Both the position numbers and the translations under genes were made by a program. The notes beneath the pieces are model-generated. The model had not been told where the DNA came from and did not search any database. It worked only from the letters and a program-made list of their open reading frames with translations. DNA of 60,713 nt from Pyrodictium sp. (GTDB lineage Archaea > Thermoproteota > Thermoprotei_A > Sulfolobales > Pyrodictiaceae), in assembly GCA_015662475.1 (NCBI GenBank), contig DQUB01000055.1:1-60713 (forward strand), given 5' to 3'. This document shows positions 13,841 through 57,911 of the stretch, piece after piece. Each line of letters begins with the position of its first letter. Positions within the stretch are counted from its first letter, which is position 1.

Positions 13841-15298
13841 TCAAATGTTGTAATATAGATATACTTCTATTGGCGATGGATATAGTCTAACTTCATTGCA
13901 CTCTCTCCTTTTGATCTCTATGTAAGTTTCCAGAGTTTCTTTGGGGAATATTGGTTTGAGGAACTCCATGTCCGATTCAAGTTCATCAAGCGCTTCATCA
14001 AGACTACGCGGTAGCTCTCTTATCCCCAATCTACGCCTCTCCTCAACCGTCATAGTATATACGTTTTTGTCCACTGGATCTCCAGGATCTATCTTCTTCT
14101 TAATACCATCAAGGCCTGCAGCAAGTATAGCTGCAAACGCTAGATATGGGTTTGCCGATGGATCTGGAGGTCTAAACTCTATCCTCTTACCCTTAGCATC
14201 GCCTCGATGATATATAGGCACTCTTACTGCTGCACTGCGATTAGCCTTGCTCCAAACAAGGTACACTGGCGCTTCGTAACCCGGTACTAACCTTTTATAA
14301 CTATTTGTTGTTGGTGCAACTAGAGCTGCTAACGCTCTACCGTGTTCTAGTAGCCCACCAATGAAATAGCGACCCAACTGACTTAGTTCTGCATATTCAT
14401 CGTTGGGATCGTAGAACAGGTTTTCCTTACCTTCTCTATCCCAAAGACTAATGTGTGTATGCATTCCATTACCGTTATCACCATAGACAACTTTAGGCAT
14501 GAAGGTTGCCGTCATCCCATGTCTTGCTGCAACATTTCTCGCAACATACTTGAGCGTGATTACGTTATCTGCCGTCTTTTTAAGATCTGCAAATCTAAAA
14601 TCTATCTCCACCTGGCCAAACGCTGCAACTTCATGGTGATGAGCCTCCACTGTGAATCCAAAATAGTCTTCAAGATATTCTGCAATCTCTTCTCTTACAA
14701 CTAGCAGTTTATCTATCGGTGTTGGCGTATGATAGGCCTTTTTTATTCTCTGGAAATCACCAACATTGACTAGCCTGTCAGAACTAGTGCTGTTAACTTC
14801 AAAGCTGTGTATCCTATAGCCTGTCCCGAATACCGGGGTTAAGATGTCTACTTCAATGCCATTTAATATCATGAATTCTACCTCAGGACCAAAGAATGCT
14901 ACATAGCCGTTTTCCGCTGCATACTGCATAGCCCTTTCTGCAATATAGCGTGGATCTTTTGGAAATCTACCTCTCCCCATACTCAGATACACATCAACTA
15001 TCATTCTAGCACGCTTAGGGTTCCAAGGGAGTATTGCTGCTGTTGACGGATCAGGCTTTAACACCAAATCACTCTCATTAATAGCAGTAAAACCTTCAAC
15101 ACTACTACCATCAAGTTGACCCAAACCTTTAGTAAATGCATCCTCGTCCAGCGAGTGGAGAGGAACCGTAGTTGAATGCAAATAGCCTGCTAGATCGACA
15201 AAGTGTAACTCTACCCATCTTACACCCTTTTTCTTCAATTCTTCTACAACTCGAAGACCTTGCTCACCCAACAACTTACACCCTTCTTGATACCCCAT
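13841..15298 (-). CDS. glnA: glutamine synthetase type I
   Basis: GNGMHTHISLW, NSYKRLVPGYEAP and RIEFRPPDPSANPYL motifs. Confidence 0.95.
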   Translation of the reverse strand: MGYQEGCKLLGEQGLRVVEELKKKGVRWVELHFVDLAGYLHSTTVPLHSLDEDAFTKGLGQLDGSSVEGFTAINESDLVLKPDPSTAAILPWNPKRARMIVDVYLSMGRGRFPKDPRYIAERAMQYAAENGYVAFFGPEVEFMILNGIEVDILTPVFGTGYRIHSFEVNSTSSDRLVNVGDFQRIKKAYHTPTPIDKLLVVREEIAEYLEDYFGFTVEAHHHEVAAFGQVEIDFRFADLKKTADNVITLKYVARNVAARHGMTATFMPKVVYGDNGNGMHTHISLWDREGKENLFYDPNDEYAELSQLGRYFIGGLLEHGRALAALVAPTTNSYKRLVPGYEAPVYLVWSKANRSAAVRVPIYHRGDAKGKRIEFRPPDPSANPYLAFAAILAAGLDGIKKKIDPGDPVDKNVYTMTVEERRRLGIRELPRSLDEALDELESDMEFLKPIFPKETLETYIEIKRRECNEVRLYPSPIEVYLYYNI

Positions 15299-16471: not shown

Positions 16472-17443
16472 ATGGATGGTAGTATGGAGACCACTGTGTA
16501 TGGGTGCATAGACAATAACACAATCGTTTTTGAAGTGGATGTTGAAAGCGAAATACCATTATATGTGCCATCTAGTTGCAAGGTGTTAGAGAAAAGAAAC
16601 ACACATTTAAAAGCTAGATGCAGTATTGGTCTTCAAGACCCAACATACATGCCACCAGCCTACTATCTTCTACCACTTCCACGCGATACACCATATCTAA
16701 AACAGCAAACACGAATTGTACTCGATATACCGCCTACATGGCATGCTATTGGGCTAGTTGAACACCATTCAACAGTTATTACAAAGACTAAGCGTGTCTA
16801 TATGGAGGGAGAACAACCACCTCAACTACTACTGTACAGGAAAGAACCATTACCAAAAACGTTGGAATTACATGATCTGCTCTTCGACTACCCCATACTC
16901 CTTTACAAAAGCGAAGAAGATGTGGTAAAGTGTTTGTACCACATTAAACAAAATGCGCTAAACTATGATGATACTGCTAAAGGGTTTAGCTGCAGTCTTG
17001 ATAAACCATGTGAGTTATACTGCAGCGAGTCTGTCTACAAACAGATAGTAAATACGCTAATGTCAGTAGATCTCAGCAATTTTGATCCCTACACAGCTTC
17101 TGCAATAATTCAACGCTTGCTGGGTTGCATACTGTCTACAGAGGCTATTAAAGCTATACGTGATGATCTAGTAGCACAAAAAAGAGCCATTACTAGTATC
17201 CTTGATTTAGTATCGGTTAAGATTGAAGGGGGAACTGCTACAATTAGTCTCTTGTACCCTTTCAAAAGGATTTGTATTCGCTACGACTGCGACAGTGTTG
17301 GAAAAGAAATCTGCTACTTTAAACATAACGTTATCAGTATAGACCTTAACAGTACGTGTAACATATACATAGCCTTTATATGCAGATCATGCTGGCAAGA
17401 ATTGAGACGTTTGCTGACTAGGTTCTCGAACAACAACACGTGA
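16472..17443 (+). CDS. hypothetical protein
   Basis: 323-aa ORF starting 4 nt after the DUF711 gene. Its 3' end overlaps rad50 convergently by 57 nt. Confidence 0.6.
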   Translation: MDGSMETTVYGCIDNNTIVFEVDVESEIPLYVPSSCKVLEKRNTHLKARCSIGLQDPTYMPPAYYLLPLPRDTPYLKQQTRIVLDIPPTWHAIGLVEHHSTVITKTKRVYMEGEQPPQLLLYRKEPLPKTLELHDLLFDYPILLYKSEEDVVKCLYHIKQNALNYDDTAKGFSCSLDKPCELYCSESVYKQIVNTLMSVDLSNFDPYTASAIIQRLLGCILSTEAIKAIRDDLVAQKRAITSILDLVSVKIEGGTATISLLYPFKRICIRYDCDSVGKEICYFKHNVISIDLNSTCNIYIAFICRSCWQELRRLLTRFSNNNT

Positions 17444-20140
17444 TATACCAGACTCTTTAACAACTTCTACAACTGTATCCGCAGCCTCTTCCAACTCACG
17501 ATCATGTGTAACAACTATCATCTGATTAACACCTAGTAACTTTGGACCTTGTCGCAATATTTCAACAAGTTCTCGCCGTCTTTCTTCGTCCAAGTGTACT
17601 GTGGGCTCATCAAGTATCAATACACCCAATTTGCCTCCAAGAGCTCTAGCTATTGCTAGTCTAAAAGCTAGAGCTAACGCTATTCTTTCACCTCCACTAA
17701 GCATTGTCACACTCTTCTTACCATCCCTCGTTAGCAGGTACACATTGTATTCAGAATCTAGCTCGACTCCAAGTGCATCAACTCCAAATCTCATTATAAA
17801 TTGTTGCATTAGCATTTCTATAATCTTCTTTGCCTTTAACCTAATGAGCCTTGGCAAGCCACCTGGTTCTAACACTTTTTGGATACGCTTCAAGTCGCTG
17901 TAAGCTTTATTTATCTTAGCTAACATCTTTCTCTTCTCCTCAACAAGCTTTTCGCAATCTTGCAACTTCTTTTCATCTTCTTCAACCTTTCTTAGACGTT
18001 CTTCAAGCATAGCTTGTTCTTTAATGAGGTCCTCTATCTCTCTTCTAACCTCCTTCACACGTTTATCTACATTCCTAAACTCTTCTTCACTAAACTCTAG
18101 CGATCTAAGTCTATCGACAACCTCTTCTAGTTCAACAACTTTCTGCTCATATTTAGACTTGAGATTTGCAAGACGTTTCTCAAGCTGTTTCTTCTCAACC
18201 ATAAGTCTATCATACTCGCTTATAACCTTCTCAAACTCTTCAAGATTTTCCACAATATAGACTATTTCGTTGAGAGAGTAGCCTGCCAATGCCTCTTCCA
18301 ACATTTGTTCGGTGTGAATTAGCTCCTCTTTCAACTTATTTAGTCTCTCTTCCTCAACTTTGATTTTTGTTGCAAGCTCTTGTAGATGTTCCAACTGCTT
18401 AATACGCTCTTCAACTTTTCCAATCTCGTCTCTTAAGGCATCATACTCTTTTACAGCTGCTAATAGCTCAAGTAGCTTATTTTGAAGTTCTTGTTTTTCT
18501 CGTTCAACAACTCTTAACTTTTCATCCAACGTTCTAATATATGATACCATCTCCTCTACTTTACTCCTAGCTTTAGAAGAGCCTTCTAGAACACTTTTAA
18601 CAAACTCCATGTCCTTCTTAAGTCTCTCCTTCTTCTCAATAAGTTTTGAAAGTTTAGCTTCTAACTCCAACTTCTTTGCCCTAAGTTGTTTTATCAACTT
18701 CATTCTATGTTCAGCATCTAAAGGTCGGCCACAGAGAGGACAACGACCACTAGCTCTTGTCAACAGTTCAAGTTGTTTTGACACTTCGTCTAGTTGCGAT
18801 CTAATTGCACCTACCTCGCTATTCAACCTATCAAAATCTTTCTCTAATTTCTCAAGCACACTCTTACTTTTTGCCTCAAGCTGCTGGAGAGCGGAAAGCA
18901 GACGCTGCGGATCTCTTAAAGCTATGTTCCGTCTATTCAATGCTTGTTCAACAATAGCTACTATACGTGCTATTGCACGTTCTTTTTCCTCTCTAAGTCT
19001 ACTAATTTCTCTATCGAGATCCGTGAGACGTTTTTTAATGGTTTCATATTCTGCTACACGGTTACTTAGACGAGTTAGCTGATCATACAGTAGACGTCGT
19101 CTTCTCATAAGCTCTTCAAGCTCTTTTACTTCTACAACTCTACCTCTATACTTTCGTATGAAGTTGGCAATATTTGCAATTTCTCTTTCAAGCATACTCT
19201 TCTTCTCTAAAAGCACCCTTACCCTTTTTGCTACTTCCACCTTACTCTTAACCTCTTCGATCGAACCATACTTCTCCATGATGGCGTTTATCTGGCTCTC
19301 AATATCTCTAAGCTCGTCTTCAACTTCTCTAATTTCATTCTCCACTTCAGCTAATTCTTTCTCGAGCATTTCTCTTCTATTGCTAAGCGAGATGTATTCT
19401 TCATGAAGAGTTCTTAGATGTTGTAGTTTCTCTTCTAGCTCTGAAAGCAACTGTTTCTTCTCCAACAGCTTTTGCGTAATTTTGGCAAGTTGAGATTGAA
19501 GTTGTGGTTTTACCTCAACTTCTTTTCTGAGCCTTTGCACCTCGTTTTCCAAGTGGCTAATATCGTTTATTATTAGGTTGCGCCTATTTTCAATCTCTTT
19601 TACAAGGTACTTTATCCTCTCATAAGCTTTCTCTATAGCGTTAAGACCCAATAGCGTGTTTAGCATGTCTATACGCTTGTTTTTGTCGTAAAGTATTAGG
19701 TCTATCTCGCCTTGCCTAGCAATCATGGAGAAACGGGCAAGCGATGCATCAATCCCTGTTAACTTTCTAATTTCTAGTTCTACGTTCTTCACACCATATG
19801 CAATAAGTCTTCTACTATTTTGCTCGTCGACCTCATATAGTCTTGCATCTGAAGCTCCTGCACGATTTATGATACGTTCGACAATGTATTTGCGTGAACC
19901 AAGCCTAAAGCATACTCTAATATATGCACGTGGTGCACCTAGTCTGATTAGAGGCTCTTTCTTTCTAGGATCACGACTATGGATTGAGAATAGTGCATAT
20001 GTTATAGCATCTATAATGCTTGTCTTTCCCGCCCCATTAGGTCCGACTATAACCGTAATGCCAGGTTCAAGCTTTAATCTAGTCTCTTTATGACTTAGAA
20101 CGTTCTCCATATAAACTTCCTCTAAGATCAATAAAATCAC
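17387..20140 (-). CDS. rad50: DNA double-strand break repair ATPase Rad50
   Basis: Walker A GPNGAGKTS, long coiled coil with zinc hook CPLCGRPL, signature LSGGERIALALA, Walker B LILDEPTVHLD. Start overlaps the mre11 stop. Confidence 0.95.
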   Translation of the reverse strand: MILLILEEVYMENVLSHKETRLKLEPGITVIVGPNGAGKTSIIDAITYALFSIHSRDPRKKEPLIRLGAPRAYIRVCFRLGSRKYIVERIINRAGASDARLYEVDEQNSRRLIAYGVKNVELEIRKLTGIDASLARFSMIARQGEIDLILYDKNKRIDMLNTLLGLNAIEKAYERIKYLVKEIENRRNLIINDISHLENEVQRLRKEVEVKPQLQSQLAKITQKLLEKKQLLSELEEKLQHLRTLHEEYISLSNRREMLEKELAEVENEIREVEDELRDIESQINAIMEKYGSIEEVKSKVEVAKRVRVLLEKKSMLEREIANIANFIRKYRGRVVEVKELEELMRRRRLLYDQLTRLSNRVAEYETIKKRLTDLDREISRLREEKERAIARIVAIVEQALNRRNIALRDPQRLLSALQQLEAKSKSVLEKLEKDFDRLNSEVGAIRSQLDEVSKQLELLTRASGRCPLCGRPLDAEHRMKLIKQLRAKKLELEAKLSKLIEKKERLKKDMEFVKSVLEGSSKARSKVEEMVSYIRTLDEKLRVVEREKQELQNKLLELLAAVKEYDALRDEIGKVEERIKQLEHLQELATKIKVEEERLNKLKEELIHTEQMLEEALAGYSLNEIVYIVENLEEFEKVISEYDRLMVEKKQLEKRLANLKSKYEQKVVELEEVVDRLRSLEFSEEEFRNVDKRVKEVRREIEDLIKEQAMLEERLRKVEEDEKKLQDCEKLVEEKRKMLAKINKAYSDLKRIQKVLEPGGLPRLIRLKAKKIIEMLMQQFIMRFGVDALGVELDSEYNVYLLTRDGKKSVTMLSGGERIALALAFRLAIARALGGKLGVLILDEPTVHLDEERRRELVEILRQGPKLLGVNQMIVVTHDRELEEAADTVVEVVKESGISRVVVREPSQQTSQFLPA

Positions 20141-21402
20141 CTCAACCTATTTCGTCTTAAAAGCATGTCTAAGGTTCTACTTGCTGAACTACGCTTAGAA
20201 GACACTCTTGCTATTGAAACGGGTGTCCACTCAATATCGATGCCATAGCGTTCTAAAACTATCTTCAAACCTTCACGCAACGCTTCACTTTCACTACCAC
20301 TACTTAAAACTGTTATTAGAGTGTCTGCAAGTTCTGCTAAACTTTTATCTCCCAATAGTTTCTCTAGAAGTTCAAGTCTGTCAAGAGGCTTTGTAACATG
20401 TTCTATACCCTCAACAGCTATTCCAATATCATCAGACTTCTTCTCAACGTAAACTCTATAGTCTAGAACAACACGTCTAAGGAAGCGCTCCAAAATGTTT
20501 AGAATTTTAGACTTGTTATATTCTCCGCCCACAACACGTACATAGACAAAGGGTTTCTTGCTAGTTCTACCTCTAGACACGATATCGGCTACAAAACGCT
20601 TTACCTTCAACTCCATAGAATCCACATCATCTATCACAAGCTCATATTGCGGTCTAACTTTTTGCAGTCTTATCTTCTGCCTATACGATACATTATTTCC
20701 AAGCTCTACCAGTACGACGTAGCGTTCAGGTTGCGCTCTAAACTCGTCTACTCGCATAACCTCTGGAGAGCCTGGATACACAGCAACACTATCGCCAATC
20801 TCAAACTCCTTGTATGTGTGAACATGGCCTAGGGCATAGTATGTATAGCCTTTTGGTATATCACCTAACTCCAACTCATAGTCAAAACACGAGCCTCGGA
20901 CACACTGGTGCAACAATAGGATGCTGGGCATGTTGGTTGGAGGATTTGACAGTTTTTTGAGTATAAGTTTAAGCGCACTACTAGAAGTCTTCTTTCTATT
21001 CCCAATACCAGCTACAAAAACTTCTCCTGACCGCGTTTTAACTGTGTAGGTAAGTCTTTGCTCGCTTATTCCAACAAGTCTAACATAGCCAAGCTCTTCT
21101 AGGAGTACTAAGGGTGGTAGAACACGACGTTTAGGCGTATCATGGTCACCTAATATTGCTATAAATGGGATGCCTTTTTCACGCAACCTTCTAAGATGCC
21201 TTATAGCAGTCAGTATTGCTTGAGGTGGAGGCCTTATAGAGTCGAAGAAGTCTCCTGAATGCACTACAAGATCAACGTGTTCTCTTAGAGCAATATCGAT
21301 AATCTCTTCAAATACATCGTACACATCATTTTCTCTCTCAACAATACCATATTGTCTATAACCTAGATGTGTGTCTGAAGTATGTAGCACGTGTACGCTC
21401 AT
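20137..21402 (-). CDS. mre11: DNA repair nuclease Mre11
   Basis: Phosphoesterase motifs HTSDTHLG, HSGDFFD, GDHD and GHVH. Confidence 0.95.
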   Translation of the reverse strand: MSVHVLHTSDTHLGYRQYGIVERENDVYDVFEEIIDIALREHVDLVVHSGDFFDSIRPPPQAILTAIRHLRRLREKGIPFIAILGDHDTPKRRVLPPLVLLEELGYVRLVGISEQRLTYTVKTRSGEVFVAGIGNRKKTSSSALKLILKKLSNPPTNMPSILLLHQCVRGSCFDYELELGDIPKGYTYYALGHVHTYKEFEIGDSVAVYPGSPEVMRVDEFRAQPERYVVLVELGNNVSYRQKIRLQKVRPQYELVIDDVDSMELKVKRFVADIVSRGRTSKKPFVYVRVVGGEYNKSKILNILERFLRRVVLDYRVYVEKKSDDIGIAVEGIEHVTKPLDRLELLEKLLGDKSLAELADTLITVLSSGSESEALREGLKIVLERYGIDIEWTPVSIARVSSKRSSASRTLDMLLRRNRLR

Positions 21403-21417
21403 AACATCTAACCTCCT

Positions 21418-22902
21418 TTAACGCGTAAACCCCTTTATCACAGCCTCAACCATTTCATCAACCACATCGTACTCCTCGCTTACTGATGACTGCCATTCTC
21501 TAACTATGTCTGGGTCTGCACCACCAAGTCTTCCCTGGAACTTGTCTATCTTAACAAGTGCTGGTACACGTACAAATGGGCCAATTAGTATTGCCTCACC
21601 CACATTTAAACCTGCAAGCTGTTCTGCAAGATCTTCACTCAAAGTCTCGCTTGCTTCTCTAATATACTTTTGATCTGAAGGCTCAACTATCTTTAAGACA
21701 ATCTTGTTGTTCATCTGGCTTAAAATGTCAACGTCTATAGATTTGGGTCTTTGGCTTACAATCGCTAAACCCACGCCAAACTTTCTACCCTCCCTCGCTA
21801 TCCTAGCCATCCAATACTTTGAAAGAGTGGTTCTATCCTTGGGCGCTAGTATGTGTGCTTCCTCTACGAAGATGAGTATTGGAACTGCTAAACCTTCTCC
21901 AAACCTTTTGTATCTTTTACGCTCATAGAGTATACGTCTTAGGAAGTGGCTTACAACAACATCGGCTGCCTCCTCATCAACACGACTCAGATCAACAATA
22001 TTTGCATAACCATACTTAATCCTACTAACAACGTCTACCACATTTTCGTCAAGTATATCTCGATACTTCTCTTGTAGAGACTCGATCTTGTTTAGCACAG
22101 CTGCAACAGCCTTTGGATCCTCTCTACCTTTTAAGCTTTCTACAGCTTTTATCAACCTATCAATGAAGCTACCCTCTCTAGACTCCATAGCTTTAGCATA
22201 TGCTCTACGGAGAACACGCTCTTGGTTATAGAACCTATGCTCTATACCTAGCAAAACCATTAGCTCAGACACAGTCAGTAGCTCTGGATTCAGTTTCGCA
22301 TCAATGACATTCACCTTGCCCCCTATTGTGGAGCCAACATATTCGCCATGAAAATCGAAGATTAAGACAGTACCACCAATCCTAACAATTCTATCTGCCA
22401 ACACTGCTACAGTGTTGCTTTTACCAGCACCCGTTACAGCAAGTATAGCTAGATGTCTCGTTACAAGCTTGTTTACATCAACGTAGACCGGAACTTCAGG
22501 TCGAGAGAGTAGTGTGCCTATACGTATCATACGAGGTTCTTTACCACCAAACACTTTCTCAAGTATATGCTGAGGCGCCCTATATACCGGCGAACCTGGT
22601 GGTGGCGGTATACGTGGAAGCTCAAATCTTGCTATGTCGCCTATAAGCTTAATTTTACCCTCAAAGAAATTGTCGCCAATTCTACCTTTCAAAAGCCTAG
22701 ATATGACCGTAGGATCTTTTACTCCATCCATTACAGAGAAAGCTGTGTTTCTTGCTCCAACCCATTCAATCATACCCAACACTTGCAAACCATTACCATA
22801 ATTGATTACCACATAATCGCCTAGGAGTGGTGGTTTATCCGAAACAAAACGTACTACCGATGGTGTTGACTCGTCTAACACGTATCCTATAGGCTTTGAC
22901 AA
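21418..22902 (-). CDS. herA: HerA-type hexameric DNA helicase/translocase
   Basis: N-terminal barrel region, Walker A TGAGKSNTV, Walker B IFVEEAH. Positioned directly upstream of mre11-rad50. Confidence 0.9.
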   Translation of the reverse strand: MSKPIGYVLDESTPSVVRFVSDKPPLLGDYVVINYGNGLQVLGMIEWVGARNTAFSVMDGVKDPTVISRLLKGRIGDNFFEGKIKLIGDIARFELPRIPPPPGSPVYRAPQHILEKVFGGKEPRMIRIGTLLSRPEVPVYVDVNKLVTRHLAILAVTGAGKSNTVAVLADRIVRIGGTVLIFDFHGEYVGSTIGGKVNVIDAKLNPELLTVSELMVLLGIEHRFYNQERVLRRAYAKAMESREGSFIDRLIKAVESLKGREDPKAVAAVLNKIESLQEKYRDILDENVVDVVSRIKYGYANIVDLSRVDEEAADVVVSHFLRRILYERKRYKRFGEGLAVPILIFVEEAHILAPKDRTTLSKYWMARIAREGRKFGVGLAIVSQRPKSIDVDILSQMNNKIVLKIVEPSDQKYIREASETLSEDLAEQLAGLNVGEAILIGPFVRVPALVKIDKFQGRLGGADPDIVREWQSSVSEEYDVVDEMVEAVIKGFTR

Positions 22903-22948: not shown

Positions 22949-23527
22949 TTAAGGAGAAAGGCATGTCAATCGGCTACTGTTACGCGAATATATTTGATTA
23001 GGTCTAACAACACTTATAGCGACATATTTCTGCGATCCTCCGTAAACGCTAACACTTTTAACTAGGACTATAATTGTTGGATTTGTGAGATCAACGCTAT
23101 ACTTCTTCTCGCAACTAGCAACTATTGCGTTTACAACATCTAACTTATGAAGCTTCTTCTTCACATCTACATCAACTATGCTGCCTTCAACTCTAATTGC
23201 AATCTTATCGCCTTCCAGAACCTTTTCACTTAATATTCTACAAGCTTCTCTAGCGAACATACTGGTTTTTGGCTGACACACAATGTCTACAGGGATTATG
23301 CGTAGCAGAAATGGTTCATTTACAAACTTCTCACAGTTCTTTTCAACAAACTTGAAGGGGTCTTCGTAGAGTCTTAAGAATAGTACATGTTGAGATGAAC
23401 CAAAAATACTGTAACGTGTTAAACTCGAAAGAAATCTTTCAACTCTGCTTCGAGCACCCCATCGAGGCTCAAACACAACTATTAGGTTGAACAGCTGTTT
23501 ACATAGTCTTTGCAAGGTTTGTCTCAC
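22949..23527 (-). CDS. small THUMP-domain protein (Tan1/COG1818-like)
   Basis: Family-like blocks LIVVFEPRWG, RIIPVD, IAIRVEG and VDLTNPTIIVLVKSV...AISVV. Start overlaps the upstream stop by 4 nt. Confidence 0.65.
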   Translation of the reverse strand: MRQTLQRLCKQLFNLIVVFEPRWGARSRVERFLSSLTRYSIFGSSQHVLFLRLYEDPFKFVEKNCEKFVNEPFLLRIIPVDIVCQPKTSMFAREACRILSEKVLEGDKIAIRVEGSIVDVDVKKKLHKLDVVNAIVASCEKKYSVDLTNPTIIVLVKSVSVYGGSQKYVAISVVRPNQIYSRNSSRLTCLSP

Positions 23528-25506
23528 ACCTTGGCTGCTTCTAGTGAAGCCATATACTCATCAAAGCTCTTCACCACTACTGTTCCATAGCCAACTATTA
23601 TGATTTTATCGGGAGACAAGGCTTTGAGCACTTCTAGACGATTTGTCGCTACTACTAACGTTATACCTGCATTGCGACAAAGTTGCGACAATTTTCGAGC
23701 TACACGCTGTGCAGTTTGAGGGTCCAAATGAGCTGCAAACTCGTCTACAACTAGCAGATTTGGTTTTGATGCTATAAGACTTGCAAGTTTTGCTCTCTCC
23801 TTCTGACCTGTAGACAGCTCCGTGATCTTAGCCCTATAGAATATCGCGTCTGAAAGCCCAACAGCATTTAATATCTCAACTGCAGTAGCTGCATCGCCAG
23901 TTTTACGCGAAATATGTTCAAGTATTGTTTCTTCGCCAAATTCAGGCTCATGTTCACCCGGCAACAGGTATTCAACTTTAGCATTCTTAGGAACCTTTAT
24001 AACACCCTCCGAAGGTCTATAATTTTCATCCTCCATCTGCTTTACTGCCCCTATTAGGAGTCTCAATAGCGTTGTTTTGCCTGCACCAGAAGCTCCTACA
24101 ACTGCCACAATTTCTCCAGGCTCTATTCTAAGGTTTACATCACGCAAGACATATCGTTCAACTACACGTCTTTCTGCACCAAAAGCCTTTAACACATCTT
24201 GTAATTCTTTAGACAACTTTGCAACGTCCAAGACATTACGATACTTTTTCGTAACATTCTCAAAGACTATTGGTCCGCTAAGCTTCTCAACCTTGCCAAA
24301 TCGTGGAACGAATAGCTTGCCTCTATGCTGTTTCGCTATAGGATCTTTTCTTAGAAACTCTTCTATCCTCCTCCTCGCCTCTTCAGTTAATGGGTACATT
24401 AGGACGGGTCTACCACTCGCTGTATCCCACATGTAGACAAAGCCTGCTTTTTCAAAGAACGGGTTGTATCTTGCCATTTGCGCTATTGTTTCAACTACAT
24501 GCTTCTTGCGTTTCATTTCAGGTATTCTTCTCTCTGCAATCCACTGTACAGCGAGTTTAACGGCTAAAACGCCAAGTCCATCACCTCTATAGTCGGGGTG
24601 TATCACTACACGAGCTATGCGTGCTGCAGCAGTATTAGCTCTGCGCAGCGCCTCTTCAGCTATTTCCTCACCTACAACAGCTCTTGCAATACGTTTACTG
24701 CCATAAAGTTCTGCTAGTTGTTTATACCTCCTAATTATCTCTAGACGACGTGTATAGGCTAGAGGCCAAAAGGTTGGGTGAAACCAGTCCTTGGGAAACA
24801 CCTTCTCCCTAATCATTTTCTCTATCCTAACAGAGCCATTGACAACGACGCGTCTATGCATGAGAGGAATCGGAGTATCAACTCTTACGTAGCCAACAAC
24901 TCTTGGTTCATGAGGCTCTCTTACAGCTAGTTCGAGGATCAAAAATCTTGAGGATGGTAGACTACCTCTAATTTCCTGCAGTTTTGTTGGAACACCATCC
25001 TCGGGACAGCTAGGCTGAACATTTGACTGGAAGTATTTGCCACATATAGGACACTTCCAAATAGCTACTATCTCTTCTCTGCTAGCGTAGTGGTATTGTT
25101 CTAACGCAACTATCTCTTGGTAATCCTCCTCGAATACTGCTTCTCGAGCAACCACAACGTACTCGTAGATTGGCTTGCCTCGAACAGGATCGCTTCTAAC
25201 TAGACGCACCTCTTTCCTCCAAGGAGGCCAAACTTGGATTCGTTCACCTTCCCATACCCTCCAAAGCAAGAACGAATCTCTTTCAGCAATGTTCACGCCA
25301 TCAACGTGGTCGGGTTCACGGAGCAGTTTCAGTATAAGTTTTTCACCAGGTGCAAGCCAACGAGCTATACTAGCTGGCATAAGAAGGCATAAACGTGCAG
25401 ACTCATAGCGAACTAGAAGACAGCCTTGCCATCTAACGCCTACACGCGGTACAACAACCTTCTCCACTAGAACCTCAACCTCTTTCAACACTGGTATACT
25501 CTGCAC
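23524..25506 (-). CDS. ABC-type ATPase fused to a GNAT acetyltransferase domain (COG2401-like)
   Basis: Zinc-ribbon-like CPICG...CPEDG. GNAT motif IHPDYRGDGLG. ABC Walker A GASGAGKTT, signature LSTGQKERAKLA, Walker B LLVVDEFAAHLD. No transporter partners nearby. Confidence 0.85.
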   Translation of the reverse strand: MQSIPVLKEVEVLVEKVVVPRVGVRWQGCLLVRYESARLCLLMPASIARWLAPGEKLILKLLREPDHVDGVNIAERDSFLLWRVWEGERIQVWPPWRKEVRLVRSDPVRGKPIYEYVVVAREAVFEEDYQEIVALEQYHYASREEIVAIWKCPICGKYFQSNVQPSCPEDGVPTKLQEIRGSLPSSRFLILELAVREPHEPRVVGYVRVDTPIPLMHRRVVVNGSVRIEKMIREKVFPKDWFHPTFWPLAYTRRLEIIRRYKQLAELYGSKRIARAVVGEEIAEEALRRANTAAARIARVVIHPDYRGDGLGVLAVKLAVQWIAERRIPEMKRKKHVVETIAQMARYNPFFEKAGFVYMWDTASGRPVLMYPLTEEARRRIEEFLRKDPIAKQHRGKLFVPRFGKVEKLSGPIVFENVTKKYRNVLDVAKLSKELQDVLKAFGAERRVVERYVLRDVNLRIEPGEIVAVVGASGAGKTTLLRLLIGAVKQMEDENYRPSEGVIKVPKNAKVEYLLPGEHEPEFGEETILEHISRKTGDAATAVEILNAVGLSDAIFYRAKITELSTGQKERAKLASLIASKPNLLVVDEFAAHLDPQTAQRVARKLSQLCRNAGITLVVATNRLEVLKALSPDKIIIVGYGTVVVKSFDEYMASLEAAKV

Positions 25507-26066
25507 AGCTTCTCAGCCCCACCACCCTCCTTACAAACTCTGTAAAGCTTCTTCAATCTTTCAACACCACCTATATCCTCAATAATTTTTGCAACACTTG
25601 ATGGCACCAACTCCTTCCATCTCTCGTCTCCAGCAACAATCATTAACCGTATCTTCTCCCCCGCAAACACCTCTCTACGGAACAACGGTGGGTTTATGAC
25701 ATTCACCCCTATATCACGTGCAACAGACTCCACAATAGGATTACGAGTTGCTATTGCGTGGATAGGGGGAGACAGCATGAGTATGTAGTGTAGCGAGGCA
25801 ATATTCACTTCTAGTGTTGGCGCGGTAATTGTAATGATCTTTGATAGGTCTATGCCTTTTTCGCGCAAAGCTTCTCTAATCATCATGATTCGCTCGCCAG
25901 CTGTAAAAGGGTTCCTCCATGTATGGCTCTCACTAGCCATTCCAATAACAACTACAACTTCGTCAAAGCGCTCTAGCAACCACTCTATAACCGCTAAATG
26001 CCCTTTGTGGAATGGTTGAAAACGACCTATAAAGAGAACCCTACTCAAAGCCATTCTGGGACCCAT
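25485..26066 (-). CDS. nadM: nicotinamide-nucleotide adenylyltransferase, archaeal type
   Basis: FIGRFQPFHKGHL nucleotidyltransferase motif. About 190 aa. Confidence 0.9.
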   Translation of the reverse strand: MGPRMALSRVLFIGRFQPFHKGHLAVIEWLLERFDEVVVVIGMASESHTWRNPFTAGERIMMIREALREKGIDLSKIITITAPTLEVNIASLHYILMLSPPIHAIATRNPIVESVARDIGVNVINPPLFRREVFAGEKIRLMIVAGDERWKELVPSSVAKIIEDIGGVERLKKLYRVCKEGGGAEKLCRVYQC

Positions 26067-27218
26067 GTGAGCAAGACAAGGATATGCTTCGTAGTAAACC
26101 CTATTGCTGGTATGGGAGGACCCTTAGCCCTAAAAGGTACTGATGGTAGAGCTAGATGGGAAGCAATAAGACGAGGTGCCAAACCTGTTTCTCCTGAGCG
26201 TGCAAAGAGGTTTCTTGATAGGCTGGAAAAACTTGGAGTACTAGAGTCAATAGAGTTTTACACCGCCACAGGGTCTATGGGCGAGGAACTGCTAAGAGAA
26301 TACAGTGTAGACTATAGGATTGTCAACGTTGTTGCTAACCCAACTGTTGCTGCAGACACTATTGAGACTGTCATAAGGTGTTGTAGGCAAGGCGTCGATC
26401 TAATAGTCTTTTGCGGAGGTGATGGAACTGCTAGAGATGTAGCCTTGGCTTTGGCTAGCGAGGATCGTAAAGATGTGCCGCTTTTGGGGATTCCATCTGG
26501 CGTGAAAATGTACAGCAGCATCTTCGCTGTAAATCCTGAAGCAGCTGCACAAGCCGTTGCAGAATTTGTTCAGTCTGGAAAAACCACGTGTTGTTGTGAA
26601 GGAGAAGTTGTAGATGTAGATGAAGAAGCGTTTCGGAAAAACATATTGAATGTGAAAATGTTTGCATTAACACAAACTCTCTGCTCGAGATATCTGGTTG
26701 GGATATCGAAACAACCTACGCCAGAAACTCCCGATGAAGAGGAGAATCGAAGAGCTATAGCCAACCACGTACTCGAATACTACGTGAAACCATGCACCCT
26801 CATAATACTCGGACCTGGAACTACCACAAAAGCTATTGCAGATGCGCTTGGCGTAGAGAAAACACTTCTTGGAGTAGATGTCATTCACAACGGGAAACTT
26901 GTAGCAAAAGATGTTGATGGACCTACACTAGAAAAGATTGTCGAGGAGCACTTGAAACGAGGAGGACATGTACTGATCATAGTATCTCCTATAGGTGGGC
27001 AAGGCTTTATATTCGGACGCGGAAACCAACAAATAACACCACGTGTACTCAAACTTGTTGGACGTAACAATATTTTGGTTGTTGCAACACGCTCTAAAAT
27101 CTCTAAACTTAAAAAACTACGTATTGATACTGGCGACCCAGAACTCGACGAAACACTCAAAGGCTATATCAGGGTAGTTGTAGACTACGACGAGGAAGTA
27201 ATTATGAAGGTTGAATGA
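26067..27218 (+). CDS. ATP-NAD kinase-like protein (COG3199 family)
   Basis: NPIAGMGG and GGDGTARDV motifs. The ORF is open from 25998, but that part overlaps nadM. GTG at 26067 or ATG at 26109 is the more likely start. Confidence 0.8.
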   Translation: MSKTRICFVVNPIAGMGGPLALKGTDGRARWEAIRRGAKPVSPERAKRFLDRLEKLGVLESIEFYTATGSMGEELLREYSVDYRIVNVVANPTVAADTIETVIRCCRQGVDLIVFCGGDGTARDVALALASEDRKDVPLLGIPSGVKMYSSIFAVNPEAAAQAVAEFVQSGKTTCCCEGEVVDVDEEAFRKNILNVKMFALTQTLCSRYLVGISKQPTPETPDEEENRRAIANHVLEYYVKPCTLIILGPGTTTKAIADALGVEKTLLGVDVIHNGKLVAKDVDGPTLEKIVEEHLKRGGHVLIIVSPIGGQGFIFGRGNQQITPRVLKLVGRNNILVVATRSKISKLKKLRIDTGDPELDETLKGYIRVVVDYDEEVIMKVE

Positions 27219-48387: not shown

Positions 48388-50361
48388 TTGCACACAGAGA
48401 AGGTGTATGATGTTTCTCCTCCCAAGCTCATAGGCAGAACTGTACATGCAGTTCTAACCTCCTATAACATCGATGTTGATCCTCTGGTAGTGGAGCGTAG
48501 TGTGTCAGAGATACCGAGAAGTTATGGTGGCGACTATGGTATCCCTATAATGAGGTTTCTTAGACAAGTCAAGGATAGTCAGGAAAAGAACAAGATTGTC
48601 AACGAGATAATCGAAAGATTGAAGAGTGAGCCAACAGTTAGAAATGCAGTGTTTGTGCGAGGCTACATAAATGTTGACTTAGACGTAAGCAGTCTTGCTA
48701 AAATAGTGTTTGAAGCTGTAAGGCATGATGGGAAAGAGTATGGCTATGTCAAAACTAGTCGCCCACAACGAATAGTGGTTGAGCATACTAGTGCAAATCC
48801 AGTACATCCACTCCATATAGGCCATGCTAGGAACATGAGTTTAGGAGATACGCTAGCAAAACTATTGAGAGCTAGAGGACACAAAGTCCAAACAAGATAC
48901 TATATCAACGATGCTGGTCGTCAAATGGCAGTCCTGGTATATGGTATAAAGATGCTTGGTAGCTACTCTCCTCCTAAGAATGTAAAGATAGACCATTGGC
49001 TAGGTCTTGTATACGCTATAACGCACACATTGGTTGACGTCTTGACGCTTAAAAAAGAAGTTGAAAGGTTGCGTGAGAAGGGAGGAGAAGAGTATCGGGA
49101 GAAACTATCAGAGCTAGATAAGCTAATGGCTGTCCTCGCAAGACTTCGAGAACGTGATCCAGCACTCTTTGATAAGCTGGCACAAGCCATATCGTCTGAT
49201 CCAAATCCCGAAGAGAGTATAGCTGAGATAATGAGGAAGTACGAGTTTAGAACAGATGAAGAGATAGTTAAGCTCACAAGAAGGATTGTAGAGGATTGTT
49301 TGAAGGGGTTCAAAGAGACAATGAGGAGAATGGGAGTTGATGTAGAGGTTTGGGATTGGGAAAGCGATTTAATATGGTCAAGCATGGTTGCAAAAATACT
49401 TGAGGAAGCGAGAAAATCACCCTACTTCACAATACATAAAGGCGCACCAGCTCTAAATCTAGCTAGTCTACAGGAAGACCCTGAAATAGCGGAAAAATTG
49501 GAACTACCTAAATCGTTCAAAATACCTTCACTAATACTCGCTAGAAGCGATGGCACAACTCTCTACACAACTCGAGACATAGCTTATACGATAAAGAAGT
49601 TCCGAGAGTTTAAAGCTGACAAGGTAATCAATGTGATAGCTGCAGAACAAAGACTAGAACAGTTGCAAGTAAGACTAGCACTTATAGCTCTAGGCTACAA
49701 ACACGAAGGCTTCAACCTCATACACTATGCCTACGAAATGGTGTCAATTCCGGGCATGAGTATGAGTGGGCGTAGGGGAGAATACATAACGTTAGACGAA
49801 CTCATAGAAGCAGCGATAAAGAGAGCAAGAGAGGAGGTAGATAAGAGACAGCCAGATCTACCAGAAGATGAGAGGCAAAAGATAGCAGAAGCAGTAGGGA
49901 TAGGCGCTGTAAGATATAGCCTAGTCTCAGTAGCAGCACAGAAACCATTGACGTTTAACCTAGAAGAAGCATTAAACTTTGAAAGAAATAGTGCACCATA
50001 CATACAATATACATATGCAAGAGCTCACAACATACTTGCTAAGTATGGCAAGCCTATACCATGGGACCAGATAGACTATAGTGCTGCAGAAGAAAACGAG
50101 CTGAGAAGAACATTAGTGATACAAGCATCGATGTTCCCATACATCTTCGCAAAAGCGGCAGATGAGCTAAAACCAGAGCTATTAGTAGCATACATAAACA
50201 GGCTAGCCGATGTATTCAACAAATGGTATCCACAAGACCATGTAATAAGAGAACCTGATGAGGGGAAAAGAGCGTTCAAATTAGCGCTAACTAAGACTGT
50301 GGAAACAATACTTGAGAACACGATGAGAATACTAGGAATACCTGTACTAGAACGCCTATAA
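48388..50361 (+). CDS. argS: arginyl-tRNA synthetase
   Basis: HTSANPVHPLHIGHARN (HIGH), MSGRRGEY region and a C-terminal anticodon-binding domain. TTG start. Confidence 0.95.
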   Translation: MHTEKVYDVSPPKLIGRTVHAVLTSYNIDVDPLVVERSVSEIPRSYGGDYGIPIMRFLRQVKDSQEKNKIVNEIIERLKSEPTVRNAVFVRGYINVDLDVSSLAKIVFEAVRHDGKEYGYVKTSRPQRIVVEHTSANPVHPLHIGHARNMSLGDTLAKLLRARGHKVQTRYYINDAGRQMAVLVYGIKMLGSYSPPKNVKIDHWLGLVYAITHTLVDVLTLKKEVERLREKGGEEYREKLSELDKLMAVLARLRERDPALFDKLAQAISSDPNPEESIAEIMRKYEFRTDEEIVKLTRRIVEDCLKGFKETMRRMGVDVEVWDWESDLIWSSMVAKILEEARKSPYFTIHKGAPALNLASLQEDPEIAEKLELPKSFKIPSLILARSDGTTLYTTRDIAYTIKKFREFKADKVINVIAAEQRLEQLQVRLALIALGYKHEGFNLIHYAYEMVSIPGMSMSGRRGEYITLDELIEAAIKRAREEVDKRQPDLPEDERQKIAEAVGIGAVRYSLVSVAAQKPLTFNLEEALNFERNSAPYIQYTYARAHNILAKYGKPIPWDQIDYSAAEENELRRTLVIQASMFPYIFAKAADELKPELLVAYINRLADVFNKWYPQDHVIREPDEGKRAFKLALTKTVETILENTMRILGIPVLERL

Positions 50362-56093: not shown

Positions 56094-57911
56094 TTACTCA
56101 GCCTCTTTTTCGGAGGGTCTAGGAATGTAGTAGTATTGGCCTATCCTCTTCTGCAATCTGTCCAAATAGCTATCCTCCTTATTTATGCGCGGTCTTCCAG
56201 TCTCTGGATCCTTTCTTATAGTCACGCCAAGTTCTTTAAGGAACAAGTTCATAGCATCTTTAAGATTCATAGGCTTGCTCGCATAGCCCTCGAAACCAGG
56301 TTTACCTCTAAACACCATTATTCTACTAGCTAGATAGTCTTGAACTGCAATATCATGTTCAACAACAAGTGCTGCAACACCACGTGTTTCGGTAAGTCTT
56401 TTAATCGTTTTTGCAACAGCTAATCTCTCCTCCACATCAAGGTAGGCAGAAGGCTCGTCAAGAAGATATACATGAGCTTCTTTTGCTAATGTGTAAGCTA
56501 TGGCTACTTTTTGCAGCTCGCCGCCACTAAGCTCGTCAATTCTACGATCTAGTAATTTGTCGAGTCTTAGTCTCTTGACGAGTTCTACGTAGAGCCAACT
56601 TCCAGGTGTTAAGACGCTAGGATTGGCTTCGCGAAGCACATTTTCAACGGTCTTTTCCTCCCCAAAGAGCTCTGGTGACACATACTGTGGCTTATAGCTC
56701 ACCTTTAGATTCGGCAAGGGTTTCTCTACATCTCCTCTTTCTGGCTTCAATTCGCCAGCTAGTACACGTACAAATGTTGTTTTCCCTATACCATTGGGGC
56801 CTAAAATGCCTAGTACTTCGCCTTCGTATAGTTCGCCAGCTTCTACTTCAAGTTTGAAAGCGCCAAGTTTTACACTTAACTTTGACCAGCTAAGATACCT
56901 TTTACCGGTTACAGGCGTTGTGTCTGTGAGGGTCAACTGGTATCTTATTGGCTCGCTTCTTATCCTCATGTTCTCTGCAGGCAGGTAGCCGTTTAAGAAG
57001 TTGTTTATGCCTACTCTAACACCATATGGTTTAGAGGCAATACCATATGTGCCAGGCTCACCAAACATTATCACGACATAGTCTGAGAGGTAGTCGAGCA
57101 TAGCTATATCATGTTCAACAACTACTACGTAGCGGTTCTTGGGTATAAAGGAGCGAATAGCTCTTGCAACTCTCACTCTCTCACGAACATCTAGATAGCT
57201 TCCAGGCTCGTCGAAAAGGTATATGGTTGCATCTTTCGAAATAACAGCTGCAACAAGGAATTTTTGGAGTTCACCACCACTAAGCTTCCTAACATCTCTA
57301 TCCCAGAGAGCATTTAGTCCTAAAAACTTGGCAACATCTTTAACAACTCCACGCTCATCAGCAATCTCTAAGAGTTTGCCAACAGGACCTTTAATCTTGC
57401 GTGGTACTAGGTCTACATATTGTATCTTATGTGCAGCTCTAATTTTTCCATCAGCAAGCTTTTTGAAGTAGGTTTGAATTTCGCTACCTCTAAACCTCCT
57501 TATAATCTCGTCCCAAGAAGGCTCACGTTCAAGCCCAAGGTTTGGCTTCATTTCGCCAGCGAGAATCCTTATCGCTGTCGTTTTACCAGTACCATTCTTG
57601 CCTATTATACCAAGTATGCTACCCTCTCTAGGTATTGGAAGCCCATAAAGTTTAAAGCCGTTTGGACCATATCGGTGAACAAGACTCTTTTCCAGTTCAT
57701 CAGGCAAATTGACTATCGAAATTGCCTTGAAGGGGCACTTCTTGACGCAAATACCACAACCAGTACACACCTCTTCATAGATTCTAGCTTTACCTCCAAC
57801 AATTTCAACAGCTTTGTTGCCAGTACGGTTTACGGGGCAAAACCTCGTACACTCTAGATTACACTTACTAGGCCTACAAAGCTCTCTATCAACAACTGCA
57901 ATACGCACCAT
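56094..57911 (-). CDS. ABCE1 / RNase L inhibitor homologue (ribosome recycling ATPase)
   Basis: N-terminal 2x[4Fe-4S] cysteines (CRPSKCNLECTRFCP, CTGCGICVKKCP) followed by two ABC nucleotide-binding domains. Confidence 0.95.
   Translation of the reverse strand: MVRIAVVDRELCRPSKCNLECTRFCPVNRTGNKAVEIVGGKARIYEEVCTGCGICVKKCPFKAISIVNLPDELEKSLVHRYGPNGFKLYGLPIPREGSILGIIGKNGTGKTTAIRILAGEMKPNLGLEREPSWDEIIRRFRGSEIQTYFKKLADGKIRAAHKIQYVDLVPRKIKGPVGKLLEIADERGVVKDVAKFLGLNALWDRDVRKLSGGELQKFLVAAVISKDATIYLFDEPGSYLDVRERVRVARAIRSFIPKNRYVVVVEHDIAMLDYLSDYVVIMFGEPGTYGIASKPYGVRVGINNFLNGYLPAENMRIRSEPIRYQLTLTDTTPVTGKRYLSWSKLSVKLGAFKLEVEAGELYEGEVLGILGPNGIGKTTFVRVLAGELKPERGDVEKPLPNLKVSYKPQYVSPELFGEEKTVENVLREANPSVLTPGSWLYVELVKRLRLDKLLDRRIDELSGGELQKVAIAYTLAKEAHVYLLDEPSAYLDVEERLAVAKTIKRLTETRGVAALVVEHDIAVQDYLASRIMVFRGKPGFEGYASKPMNLKDAMNLFLKELGVTIRKDPETGRPRINKEDSYLDRLQKRIGQYYYIPRPSEKEAE

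Follow-up and report, generated by a model that had tools for sequence, protein, structure and literature searches.

Two neighbouring genes for a GNAT/ABC fusion and a THUMP protein

The DNA analysed here, called the window throughout, is a contig of 60,713 nucleotides (nt) from Pyrodictium sp. (DQUB01000055.1, assembly GCA_015662475.1). On its minus strand, the list of open reading frames (ORFs) contains two neighbouring genes that had been noticed in a preliminary description of the sequence: the first encodes a protein in which a GNAT acetyltransferase domain is fused to an ABC ATPase domain (in the following, the fusion), and the second encodes a small THUMP-like protein. The preliminary description proposed that the two proteins form a dedicated RNA-acetylating machine. 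Our work supports the domain assignments on which this proposal was built, whereas a conserved pairing of the genes and an independent synthesis of N4-acetylcytidine (ac4C) by the fusion are not borne out. We lean towards the idea that these are two genuine genes whose products probably function separately and for which a common operon is limited to one small Pyrodictiaceae-related clade. The two genes and their junction are:

23524-25506, minus strand: ABC-ATPase/GNAT fusion gene, 660 amino acids (ORF listing and Pfam)
22949-23527, minus strand: THUMP-like gene as the longest ORF, 192 amino acids; 22949-23515 if read from TTG, 188 amino acids
23516-23530, minus strand: gene junction, with the fusion stop codon TGA at 23524-23526, an 8-nt spacer and the TTG start

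The longest ORF of the THUMP gene starts with a GTG at 23527, and this start gives a 4-nt overlap with the fusion gene that had been taken as translational coupling. In the syntenic Pyrodictium sp. contig L083, the equivalent frame reads GTG AGA TAA. Because of this in-frame TAA, translation must begin there at the TTG that corresponds to codon 5 of the window gene (23515). This TTG is the sole start codon compatible with all five close homologues (P0122 is N-terminally truncated), and a Shine-Dalgarno-like GGTG motif (23527-23530) is found about 12 nt upstream of it. Judged from the sequence, the true start of the THUMP gene is probably this TTG, 8 nt past the stop codon of the fusion gene. 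The tight packing of the two genes holds, and they are probably co-transcribed, whereas the 4-nt overlap is improbable since the stop codon in L083 excludes the GTG start there.

Linkage of the two genes is confined to one clade

The fusion and THUMP genes are the second and third members of a minus-strand run of six tightly spaced genes. The other four are:

25485-26066, minus strand: nicotinamide mononucleotide (NMN) adenylyltransferase-like gene, 193 amino acids (Pfam CTP_transf_like, E 1e-16)
21418-22902, minus strand: herA, 494 amino acids (Pfam DUF87/HerA_C)
20137-21402, minus strand: mre11, 421 amino acids
17387-20140, minus strand: rad50, 917 amino acids

The NMN adenylyltransferase-like ORF lies upstream of the fusion ORF and overlaps it by 22 nt, and the herA-mre11-rad50 genes (17387-22902, minus strand) follow directly downstream of the THUMP gene after a gap of 46 nt. 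The flanks of the fusion gene are thus the NMN adenylyltransferase-like gene on one side and, beyond the THUMP gene, herA on the other. As the preliminary description had noted, no permease or binding-protein gene adjoins the fusion gene in the window (ORF listing and Pfam).

A scan of one genome per species revealed that at least 250 species genomes encode a relative of the fusion. The loci of the best 80 of 250 such genomes were compared, and 77 of these loci carry a complete fusion gene. Neighbouring THUMP genes were sought among all ORFs of at least 70 amino acids in the 80 loci by iterative searches with hidden Markov models, first with a narrow profile and then with a broad profile of 23 sequences, and divergent THUMP neighbours that escaped detection are unlikely. 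With the THUMP family profile, only two of the 77 loci (L001 and L042) proved to have a THUMP gene no further than 5 kb from the fusion gene, and a THUMP gene is located directly downstream of the fusion gene in a single one (L001) of the 69 loci for which at least 650 nt of downstream sequence are available. The reverse comparison gave the same picture: no fusion gene is present within 4-5 kb of the THUMP orthologue at any of six loci outside the clade, where the THUMP genes adjoin genes for PhoU_div, phosphoglucomutase/phosphomannomutase or Sua5. The preliminary description had made its proposal depend on an adjacency that is conserved in other genomes; across the lineages that have both families, such an adjacency is not found. 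Moreover, no Nat10 gene adjoins the THUMP orthologue at any locus examined.

At the four loci where the two genes are linked, the THUMP gene always immediately precedes herA, and it adjoins the fusion gene in three of them. In the two Pyrodictium sp. contigs L083 and L084, the gene order is the same as in the window. In L001, the order is radical S-adenosylmethionine (SAM) gene, fusion, THUMP, herA, mre11. In L042, it is radical SAM, THUMP, herA, fusion, mre11, rad50, so that herA separates the THUMP gene from the fusion gene. The mre11 gene is part of the same cluster in L083, L001 and L042, and rad50 in L083 and L042. Other Pyrodictiaceae loci, with fusion proteins that are 67-72% identical, have different neighbours. 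Downstream of the fusion gene, the other Pyrodictiaceae and the Desulfurococcales carry genes for flavin reductase-like and Maf-like proteins, an uncharacterised protein of 407 amino acids or an ORF that is putatively methyltransferase-like (an assignment made without a Pfam check), and a creatininase-like gene is often found upstream. In an all-against-all BLAST comparison, no neighbour family of the fusion gene was present in more than 14 of the 77 loci; the commonest are creatininase-like, flavin reductase, Maf, AGOG and radical SAM proteins. Permeases or binding proteins were not found among the recurrent neighbour families of the related loci that were checked against Pfam.

The two proteins also differ in their rate of divergence. 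The fusion is 91% identical to its nearest relative and about 60-70% identical across the Thermoproteota; for the THUMP protein, the corresponding values are 72% and about 25-30%. Due to this difference, with the THUMP protein diverging about three times faster, the two proteins are unlike an obligate co-evolving pair. Taken with the gene orders, the linkage pattern fits synteny inherited within one clade and not a selected two-gene machine.

Several features of these loci can be added. In L042, the fusion gene lies between herA and mre11, within the repair operon. The radical SAM gene (384-398 amino acids) precedes the fusion gene in L001 (3803-4957) and the THUMP gene in L042 (1496-2692), with gaps of about 10-13 nt; at this place, the window has the NMN adenylyltransferase-like gene, which is also found upstream of the fusion gene in L083 and L084 and in no such arrangement in the other related loci. 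Outside the clade, the small THUMP orthologue of a member of the Nitrososphaerales (L090, 3372-4525) overlaps the end of a gene for Sua5/YciO/YrdC, a protein of the tRNA t6A pathway, by 4 nt, and in L082, L089 and L091 the THUMP orthologue is located directly upstream of the phosphoglucomutase/phosphomannomutase gene.

Architecture and distribution of the fusion family

The fusion begins with an all-beta N-terminal domain, followed by a GNAT domain into which a zinc ribbon is inserted; a helical linker then leads to a single, complete ABC nucleotide-binding domain. An AlphaFold2 (AF2) model covers residues 1-432 (pLDDT 81.3), and the conservation of the motifs was counted in an alignment of 121 family members. 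The features are, with all coordinates on the minus strand:

25192-25482, minus strand: N-terminal all-beta domain of nine strands, residues ~9-105 (AF2 model)
24391-25173, minus strand: GNAT domain, residues ~112-372 (Pfam, AF2 secondary structure, Foldseek)
residues 112-122 and 126-139: GNAT beta-1 and alpha-1 (AF2 model)
25087-25092, minus strand: His139-Tyr140 at the end of GNAT alpha-1, conserved in 121/121
24994-25065, minus strand: zinc ribbon, residues ~148-171 (region 148-179 in the AF2 layout)
residues 187-193 and 203-210: GNAT beta-2 and beta-3 (AF2 model)
residues 218-289: hairpin and two long helices (AF2 model)
from residue 294: motif A, with beta-4 (294-302) and alpha-3 (311-326) (AF2 model)
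24571-24621, minus strand: acetyl-CoA motif A, RIARVVIHPDYRGDGLG, residues 296-312; R299, G310 and G312 invariant in 121 members
residues 375-394: linker helices (AF2 model)
23557-24210, minus strand: ABC nucleotide-binding domain, residues ~433-650 (Pfam ABC_tran 454-590, E 7e-20)
24070-24096, minus strand: Walker A, GASGAGKTT, residues 471-479
23803-23817, minus strand: ABC signature, LSTGQ, residues 564-568
23740-23757, minus strand: Walker B, LLVVDE, residues 584-589
23638-23646, minus strand: H-loop, T-N-R, residues 621-623

For the N-terminal beta domain, no Pfam family was found even at E 10, and Foldseek gave only weak matches to OB/beta-grasp superantigen-like proteins. The GNAT assignment of the preliminary description is well supported: the Pfam family Acetyltransf_1 scores 21.5 bits with a cut-off of 20.7 (Acetyltransf_7 stays below its cut-off with 23.6 versus 27), the order of strands and helices in the AF2 model is that of a GNAT fold, and Foldseek matches many GNATs with a probability of 1.00. 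Motif A aligns with the segment 622-666 of NAT10 and with residues 456-552 of TmcA. In addition to the zinc ribbon, the GNAT domain carries a beta-hairpin/helical insertion that separates beta-3 from beta-4. The zinc ribbon that had been seen in the sequence is confirmed; its three cysteines (C152, C155 and C167) are each conserved in 121/121 proteins and position 170 is H, D or C (D170 in the window). In the AF2 model, the ribbon (strands 148-151 and 158-160) lies within the GNAT domain after alpha-1 rather than in a separate N-terminal region. Residues 106-183 (24958-25191), comprising alpha-1 and the ribbon, match P. furiosus PF0385 (PDB 2k5c, E 1.3e-3).

The single complete ABC domain recognised earlier is likewise confirmed. 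It belongs to the ABC ATPase superfamily (PF00005), and the Walker A lysine, the LSTGQ signature and the D/E of Walker B are invariant in all 121 proteins. Two variants set it apart: the H-loop carries Asn in 113/121 members and the canonical His in eight, in agreement with the TN that had been read in the window, and the Q-loop position is Glu rather than Gln in 119/121. In the PDB, profile searches with this domain match both soluble and transporter nucleotide-binding domains. The matches in NCBIfam are of the generic ABC kind, and every one falls far short of the equivalog cut-off (e. g. PhnC, 98.9 versus 266 bits). With no partner gene in the locus and no transporter equivalog above its cut-off, the domain is unlikely to be part of an ABC transporter.

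The fusion family, which we take to be COG2401, is widespread. Among the candidates scored, 1794 proteins match the fusion at E<=1e-5, many of them probably generic ABC ATPases; the top 120 match over the full length with 60-91% identity. The best 80 loci all belong to thermophilic archaeal lineages, i. e. Desulfurococcales, Pyrodictiaceae, Acidilobaceae, Thermoproteales, Thermofilaceae, Methanomethylicota, Nitrososphaeria/Wolframiiraptor and Thermococcus. Family members share 56-72% identity, with more than 94% of the length covered, and even the proteins of Thermococcus and Pyrodictiaceae are about 56% identical. The Joint Genome Institute (JGI) lists the family as 'ABC-type ATPase with predicted acetyltransferase domain', and the orthologue of Thermococcus kodakarensis (BAD84625.1/WP_011249391.1) is named 'ABC-type transporter, ATPase component, fused to acetyltransferase domain'. 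Further named orthologues are those of A. pernix (BAA81284.2) and P. fumarii (AEM39412.1), and the protein is also encoded in Thermococcus sp. AM4. As the family is already catalogued by JGI and NCBI, it is not new as a family. The earlier view that it is uncharacterised appears to hold, as no published function for any member was found in the literature searched. In Thermococcus, the fusion gene follows the thiamine biosynthesis genes for ThiC, Thi4 and ThiD-ThiN (L077, 1514-4929), a lineage-specific context with no obvious link to RNA.

The THUMP protein

The assignment of the 192-amino-acid protein to the THUMP family came from the block structure of its sequence, and structure prediction bears it out. 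The Pfam THUMP family matches the window protein with 17.2 bits, below the cut-off of 20.6; the orthologue from L001 passes with 23.5 bits, and 8 of the 23 members of the small-THUMP family have a match. The AF2 model, calculated with six close homologues, has a pLDDT of 81.8 and a pTM of 0.79 and shows a beta-alpha-beta-beta-alpha-beta ferredoxin-like domain (NFLD) followed by an alpha/beta domain. Foldseek gave 19 matches at E<=1e-3, every one to an NFLD+THUMP module from a tRNA-modifying enzyme and over 162-213 columns, i. e. essentially the whole protein; they include ThiI, PH1313, Trm11, CDAT8, Trm14, RlmL and TrmN. A direct sequence search against the PDB gave no match. With the small-THUMP profile, the THUMP domain of human THUMPD1 (2dir, E 0.018) is the sole THUMP protein detected among the PDB sequences, in line with the Tan1-like architecture suggested earlier. 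In an exhaustive profile search, 22 representative relatives of 93-193 amino acids were identified, all but one with 160-193 amino acids. A wider search added proteins from Desulfurococcus, Zestosphaera, Sulfolobales and Nitrososphaerales, and NCBI names them 'THUMP domain-containing protein'. Archaeal Tan1 orthologues of NFLD+THUMP build are known (PMC9957541). As modelled, the window protein is a stand-alone NFLD-THUMP protein with the architecture of Tan1/THUMPD1 and without a catalytic domain.

ac4C synthesis and the NAT10/TmcA likeness of the GNAT domain

T. kodakarensis, with its orthologue of the fusion, bears on the question whether the protein acetylates RNA. In this organism, a transposon insertion in TK0754, encoding Nat10/TmcA, abolishes ac4C in tRNA, and TK0754 has been called the unique enzyme (PMC6393311). 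The RNA of a TK0754/Nat10 knockout is entirely ac4C-deficient, and recombinant TkNat10 is adaptor-independent in vitro (bioRxiv 10.1101/2024.10.25.620255). That T. kodakarensis possesses the fusion orthologue and yet loses all ac4C upon disruption of TK0754 is indirect evidence against the fusion as an independent writer of ac4C in this organism. For N6-acetyladenosine (ac6A), there are reports from M. kandleri and a tentative one from the mesophile M. maripaludis; to regard it as the product of the fusion is speculation, as this occurrence does not obviously match the distribution of the family in thermophiles.

In structure comparisons, the GNAT domain of the fusion shows some resemblance to NAT10. 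This likeness and the gene order in the Pyrodictiaceae-related clade are what weighs against the idea of two separately acting proteins. The top seven Foldseek matches of the GNAT domain are NAT10/Kre33 structures (9j3c, 9aym, 5jpq, 9b0e, 9b0i, 7mq8 and 6rxt, E 5e-5 to 3e-4), and the best sequence matches in the PDB concern motif A of NAT10 (E 0.11). NAT10 and TmcA possess an essential His-Tyr pair upstream of motif A (H537/Y538 in the human and H548/Y549 in the Chaetomium protein; PMC13433802). If residues 142-170, i. e. the ribbon, are spliced out of the fusion, hhalign pairs LEQYHYA/GVPTKLQEIRGSLPSSRFL with the His-Tyr region of TmcA/NAT10, and H139-Y140 is possibly the counterpart of the catalytic pair. 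With the leading Foldseek matches, the motif A match to NAT10 and the alignable His-Tyr pair, an RNA substrate, and hence a partnership with the THUMP protein, remains plausible. Moreover, the fusion and THUMP genes are directly adjacent, with a spacer of at most 8 nt, in the window, L083/L084 and L001, and even after the rearrangement in L042 they are still in one cluster, so that a functional link specific for this clade is conceivable. Finally, the dimerisation of the fusion, its use of ATP as a switch and the class of its substrate enter our interpretation by inference only, as does the partner of the THUMP protein.

The NAT10-specific part of this signal does not stand out from the background of the GNAT superfamily. 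Generic GNATs come next in Foldseek (E 2e-4 to 1e-3). The hhalign comparison with a three-sequence TmcA/NAT10/Kre33 profile gave an E-value of 7e-6; in the single-sequence controls, RimI (4.7e-5) and SpeG (8e-5) score as well as or better than TmcA (2.3e-3). The P-value for the His-Tyr sub-region alone is 0.042, with a splice that was chosen post hoc, after the alignment had been viewed. The RNA-type family PF13718 (GNAT_acetyltr_2) was not reached with 14.4 bits, nor with 12-16 bits after removal of the ribbon, alone or together with the second insertion (cut-off 24.6). The RecD-like helicase domain PF05127, TmcA_N/DUF1726 and tRNA_bind_3 are absent from the fusion in Pfam searches that detected all of them in E. 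coli TmcA as the positive control. We have therefore rejected the view that the domain is a proven GNAT of the NAT10/TmcA type, as the RimI and SpeG controls match as well and PF13718 stays below its cut-off, and keep a NAT10-like GNAT domain as a weak lead.

Other genes in the window

A few observations concern the surroundings of the six-gene run. In the window, rad50 is not followed by a NurA-type gene; beyond it, a convergent ORF of 323 amino acids (16472-17443, plus strand) has no match in Pfam. The NMN adenylyltransferase-like gene is arranged divergently to one for an NAD kinase-like protein (25485-27218), and the 5' ends of their longest ORFs overlap at 25998-26066. As the two genes abut without overlap in L083, their start codons in the window have probably been called too early. 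The window also encodes the soluble ABC ATPase ABCE1/RLI, which has two ABC domains as well as Fe-S domains (56094-57911), arginyl-tRNA synthetase (48388-50361), cysteinyl-tRNA synthetase (1296-2762) and glutamine synthetase (13841-15298). No Nat10/TmcA-type gene was found among the window ORFs of at least 450 amino acids.

Possible functions of the two proteins

Taken together, the fusion and THUMP genes are probably two separate housekeeping genes rather than a dedicated RNA-acetylating pair. Single-domain ABC ATPases homodimerise. In the fusion, two subunits would be arranged head-to-tail around two ATP molecules, with the Walker A motif of one subunit facing the LSTGQ motif of the other, and such a dimer would place two GNAT/N-domain modules on the same substrate. 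The Asn in the H-loop and the Glu in the Q-loop may slow down hydrolysis, and ATP would then act as a clamp or switch and not drive a motor. The acetyl group would be donated by acetyl-CoA bound at motif A (RIARVVIHPDYRGDGLG). The extreme conservation of the protein as well as its beta-domain and zinc ribbon suggest that the substrate is a macromolecule, i. e. RNA, a ribonucleoprotein or a protein, but not that the product is bulk ac4C. The THUMP protein, for its part, may be the stand-alone NFLD-THUMP adaptor of the Tan1/THUMPD1 type in Thermoproteota and bind tRNA acceptor ends; most likely, it would serve the canonical Nat10 or another tRNA enzyme encoded elsewhere.

Other readings have to be weighed against this idea of two separately acting proteins. 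The fusion might be an ATP-regulated acetyltransferase for lysine residues or N-termini of a conserved protein or ribonucleoprotein, with the THUMP protein being unrelated. We consider this unlikely, even if it agrees with the fact that Acetyltransf_1 and Acetyltransf_7 outscore the RNA-type PF13718, that the protein N-acetyltransferase RimI matches as well as or better than TmcA in hhalign, and that many GNATs acting on proteins or small molecules are within one log unit of NAT10 in Foldseek. The beta-domain and the zinc ribbon are equally compatible with nucleic-acid binding, however, and no target gene is linked. Moreover, we know of no protein acetyltransferase with an ABC domain.

The proposal of the preliminary description would make the fusion and the THUMP protein a dedicated, ATP-driven tRNA acetyltransferase, with the THUMP protein as the holder of the acceptor end and the ABC domain in place of the helicase module of TmcA/NAT10. 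It could account for the co-oriented, closely spaced genes of the clade, for the NAT10/Kre33 structures at the top of the Foldseek matches, for the invariant His-Tyr pair and for the Tan1/THUMPD1 type of the THUMP protein. We nevertheless regard it as improbable: the adjacency is lacking in 75 of the 77 fusion loci and in all six THUMP loci outside the clade, herA separates the two genes in L042 and is the more constant neighbour of the THUMP gene, the two proteins diverge at different rates, the ac4C of T. kodakarensis depends on TK0754 only, and the NAT10-specific signal is not significant. It is tempting to speculate, with a similarly low expectation, that thermophilic archaea possess, in the fusion family, a second class of nucleic-acid acetyltransferases that is driven by an ABC ATPase: a diverged NAT10/TmcA-like GNAT domain would have kept the His-Tyr pair and gained the zinc ribbon, the mark would be one other than bulk ac4C (e. 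g. an orphan mark like ac6A, one at a rare site, or one on an aminoacyl-tRNA or a ribonucleoprotein), and the THUMP adaptor would have been recruited in the Pyrodictiaceae clade.

Very improbable is a role in an ABC transporter, in which the fusion would serve as the ATPase subunit for a permease encoded elsewhere and couple transport to the acetylation of small molecules, for instance polyamines or antibiotics: its nucleotide-binding domain is as close to transporter domains (PhnC, ECF, CydD, MetN and OpuCA-type) as to soluble ones, polyamine and agmatine acetyltransferases are among the Foldseek matches and some sources annotate it as 'ABC transporter', but no permease or binding-protein gene adjoins the fusion gene in the window or is present among the Pfam-checked neighbour families, the transporter equivalogs of NCBIfam all remain far below their cut-offs, and Glu stands in place of the Q-loop Gln that contacts the coupling helices of permeases, and Asn in place of the H-loop His. 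A role in defence was dismissed, as PADLOC gave generic ABC-domain matches only and nothing for the THUMP protein.

Should the pair nevertheless turn out to acetylate RNA, with an ABC domain as the driving ATPase and the THUMP protein as adaptor, ATP-coupled RNA acetylation would have been solved a second time and by an independent assembly, and orphan acetyl marks in archaeal RNA could find an explanation. The evidence favours the ordinary reading, in which both genes belong to catalogued families and lie side by side in one clade. The fusion is of interest in itself: it is conserved in thermophiles with intact ATPase and GNAT motifs, and its orthologue in the genetically tractable T. kodakarensis allows direct testing of its role.

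Comparison with known systems

The window protein is collinear over its full length with the catalogued family (BAD84625.1, BAA81284.2 and AEM39412.1), with the same order of N-terminal domain, GNAT domain with zinc ribbon, and ABC domain. There is no substantive difference, and it is thus another member. Alpha-1 and the zinc ribbon of the fusion resemble PF0385, an uncharacterised zinc-ribbon protein that stands alone with 95 amino acids.

Like TmcA, NAT10 and Kre33, the fusion combines an ATPase and a GNAT domain in one polypeptide, has a similar motif A (RIARVVIHPDYRGDGLG in the fusion and RVVRIAVHPDYQGMGYG in NAT10), helices inserted between beta-3 and beta-4 and, where alpha-1 ends, a His-Tyr pair that may correspond to theirs. 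However, the ATPase of the fusion is an ABC domain located C-terminal to the GNAT domain, whereas that of TmcA/NAT10/Kre33 is a RecD-like helicase located N-terminal to it, and the fusion lacks their TmcA_N/DUF1726 domain and tRNA_bind_3 tail. The THUMP protein shares with Tan1 and THUMPD1 the combination of NFLD and THUMP in about 190 amino acids and the lack of a catalytic domain; an orthology to them is putative, the profile match being weak (E 0.018), and in the structure ranking ThiI, PH1313 and Trm11 are placed above the THUMPD1 domain. Tan1/THUMPD1 serve Kre33/NAT10 as an adaptor, whereas TkNat10 works without one in vitro.

The ABC half of the fusion calls to mind the ABC-F proteins (EttA), ABCE1 and component A2 of methyl-coenzyme M reductase, which are soluble, ATP-driven clamps or switches and, like the fusion, have no membrane partner. 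The ABC-F structures ExpZ, PoxtA and EttA are among its best matches in the PDB, and component A2 matches in NCBIfam. These systems contain two tandem nucleotide-binding domains and no GNAT domain, whereas the fusion has a single nucleotide-binding domain, would have to homodimerise and carries a GNAT domain.

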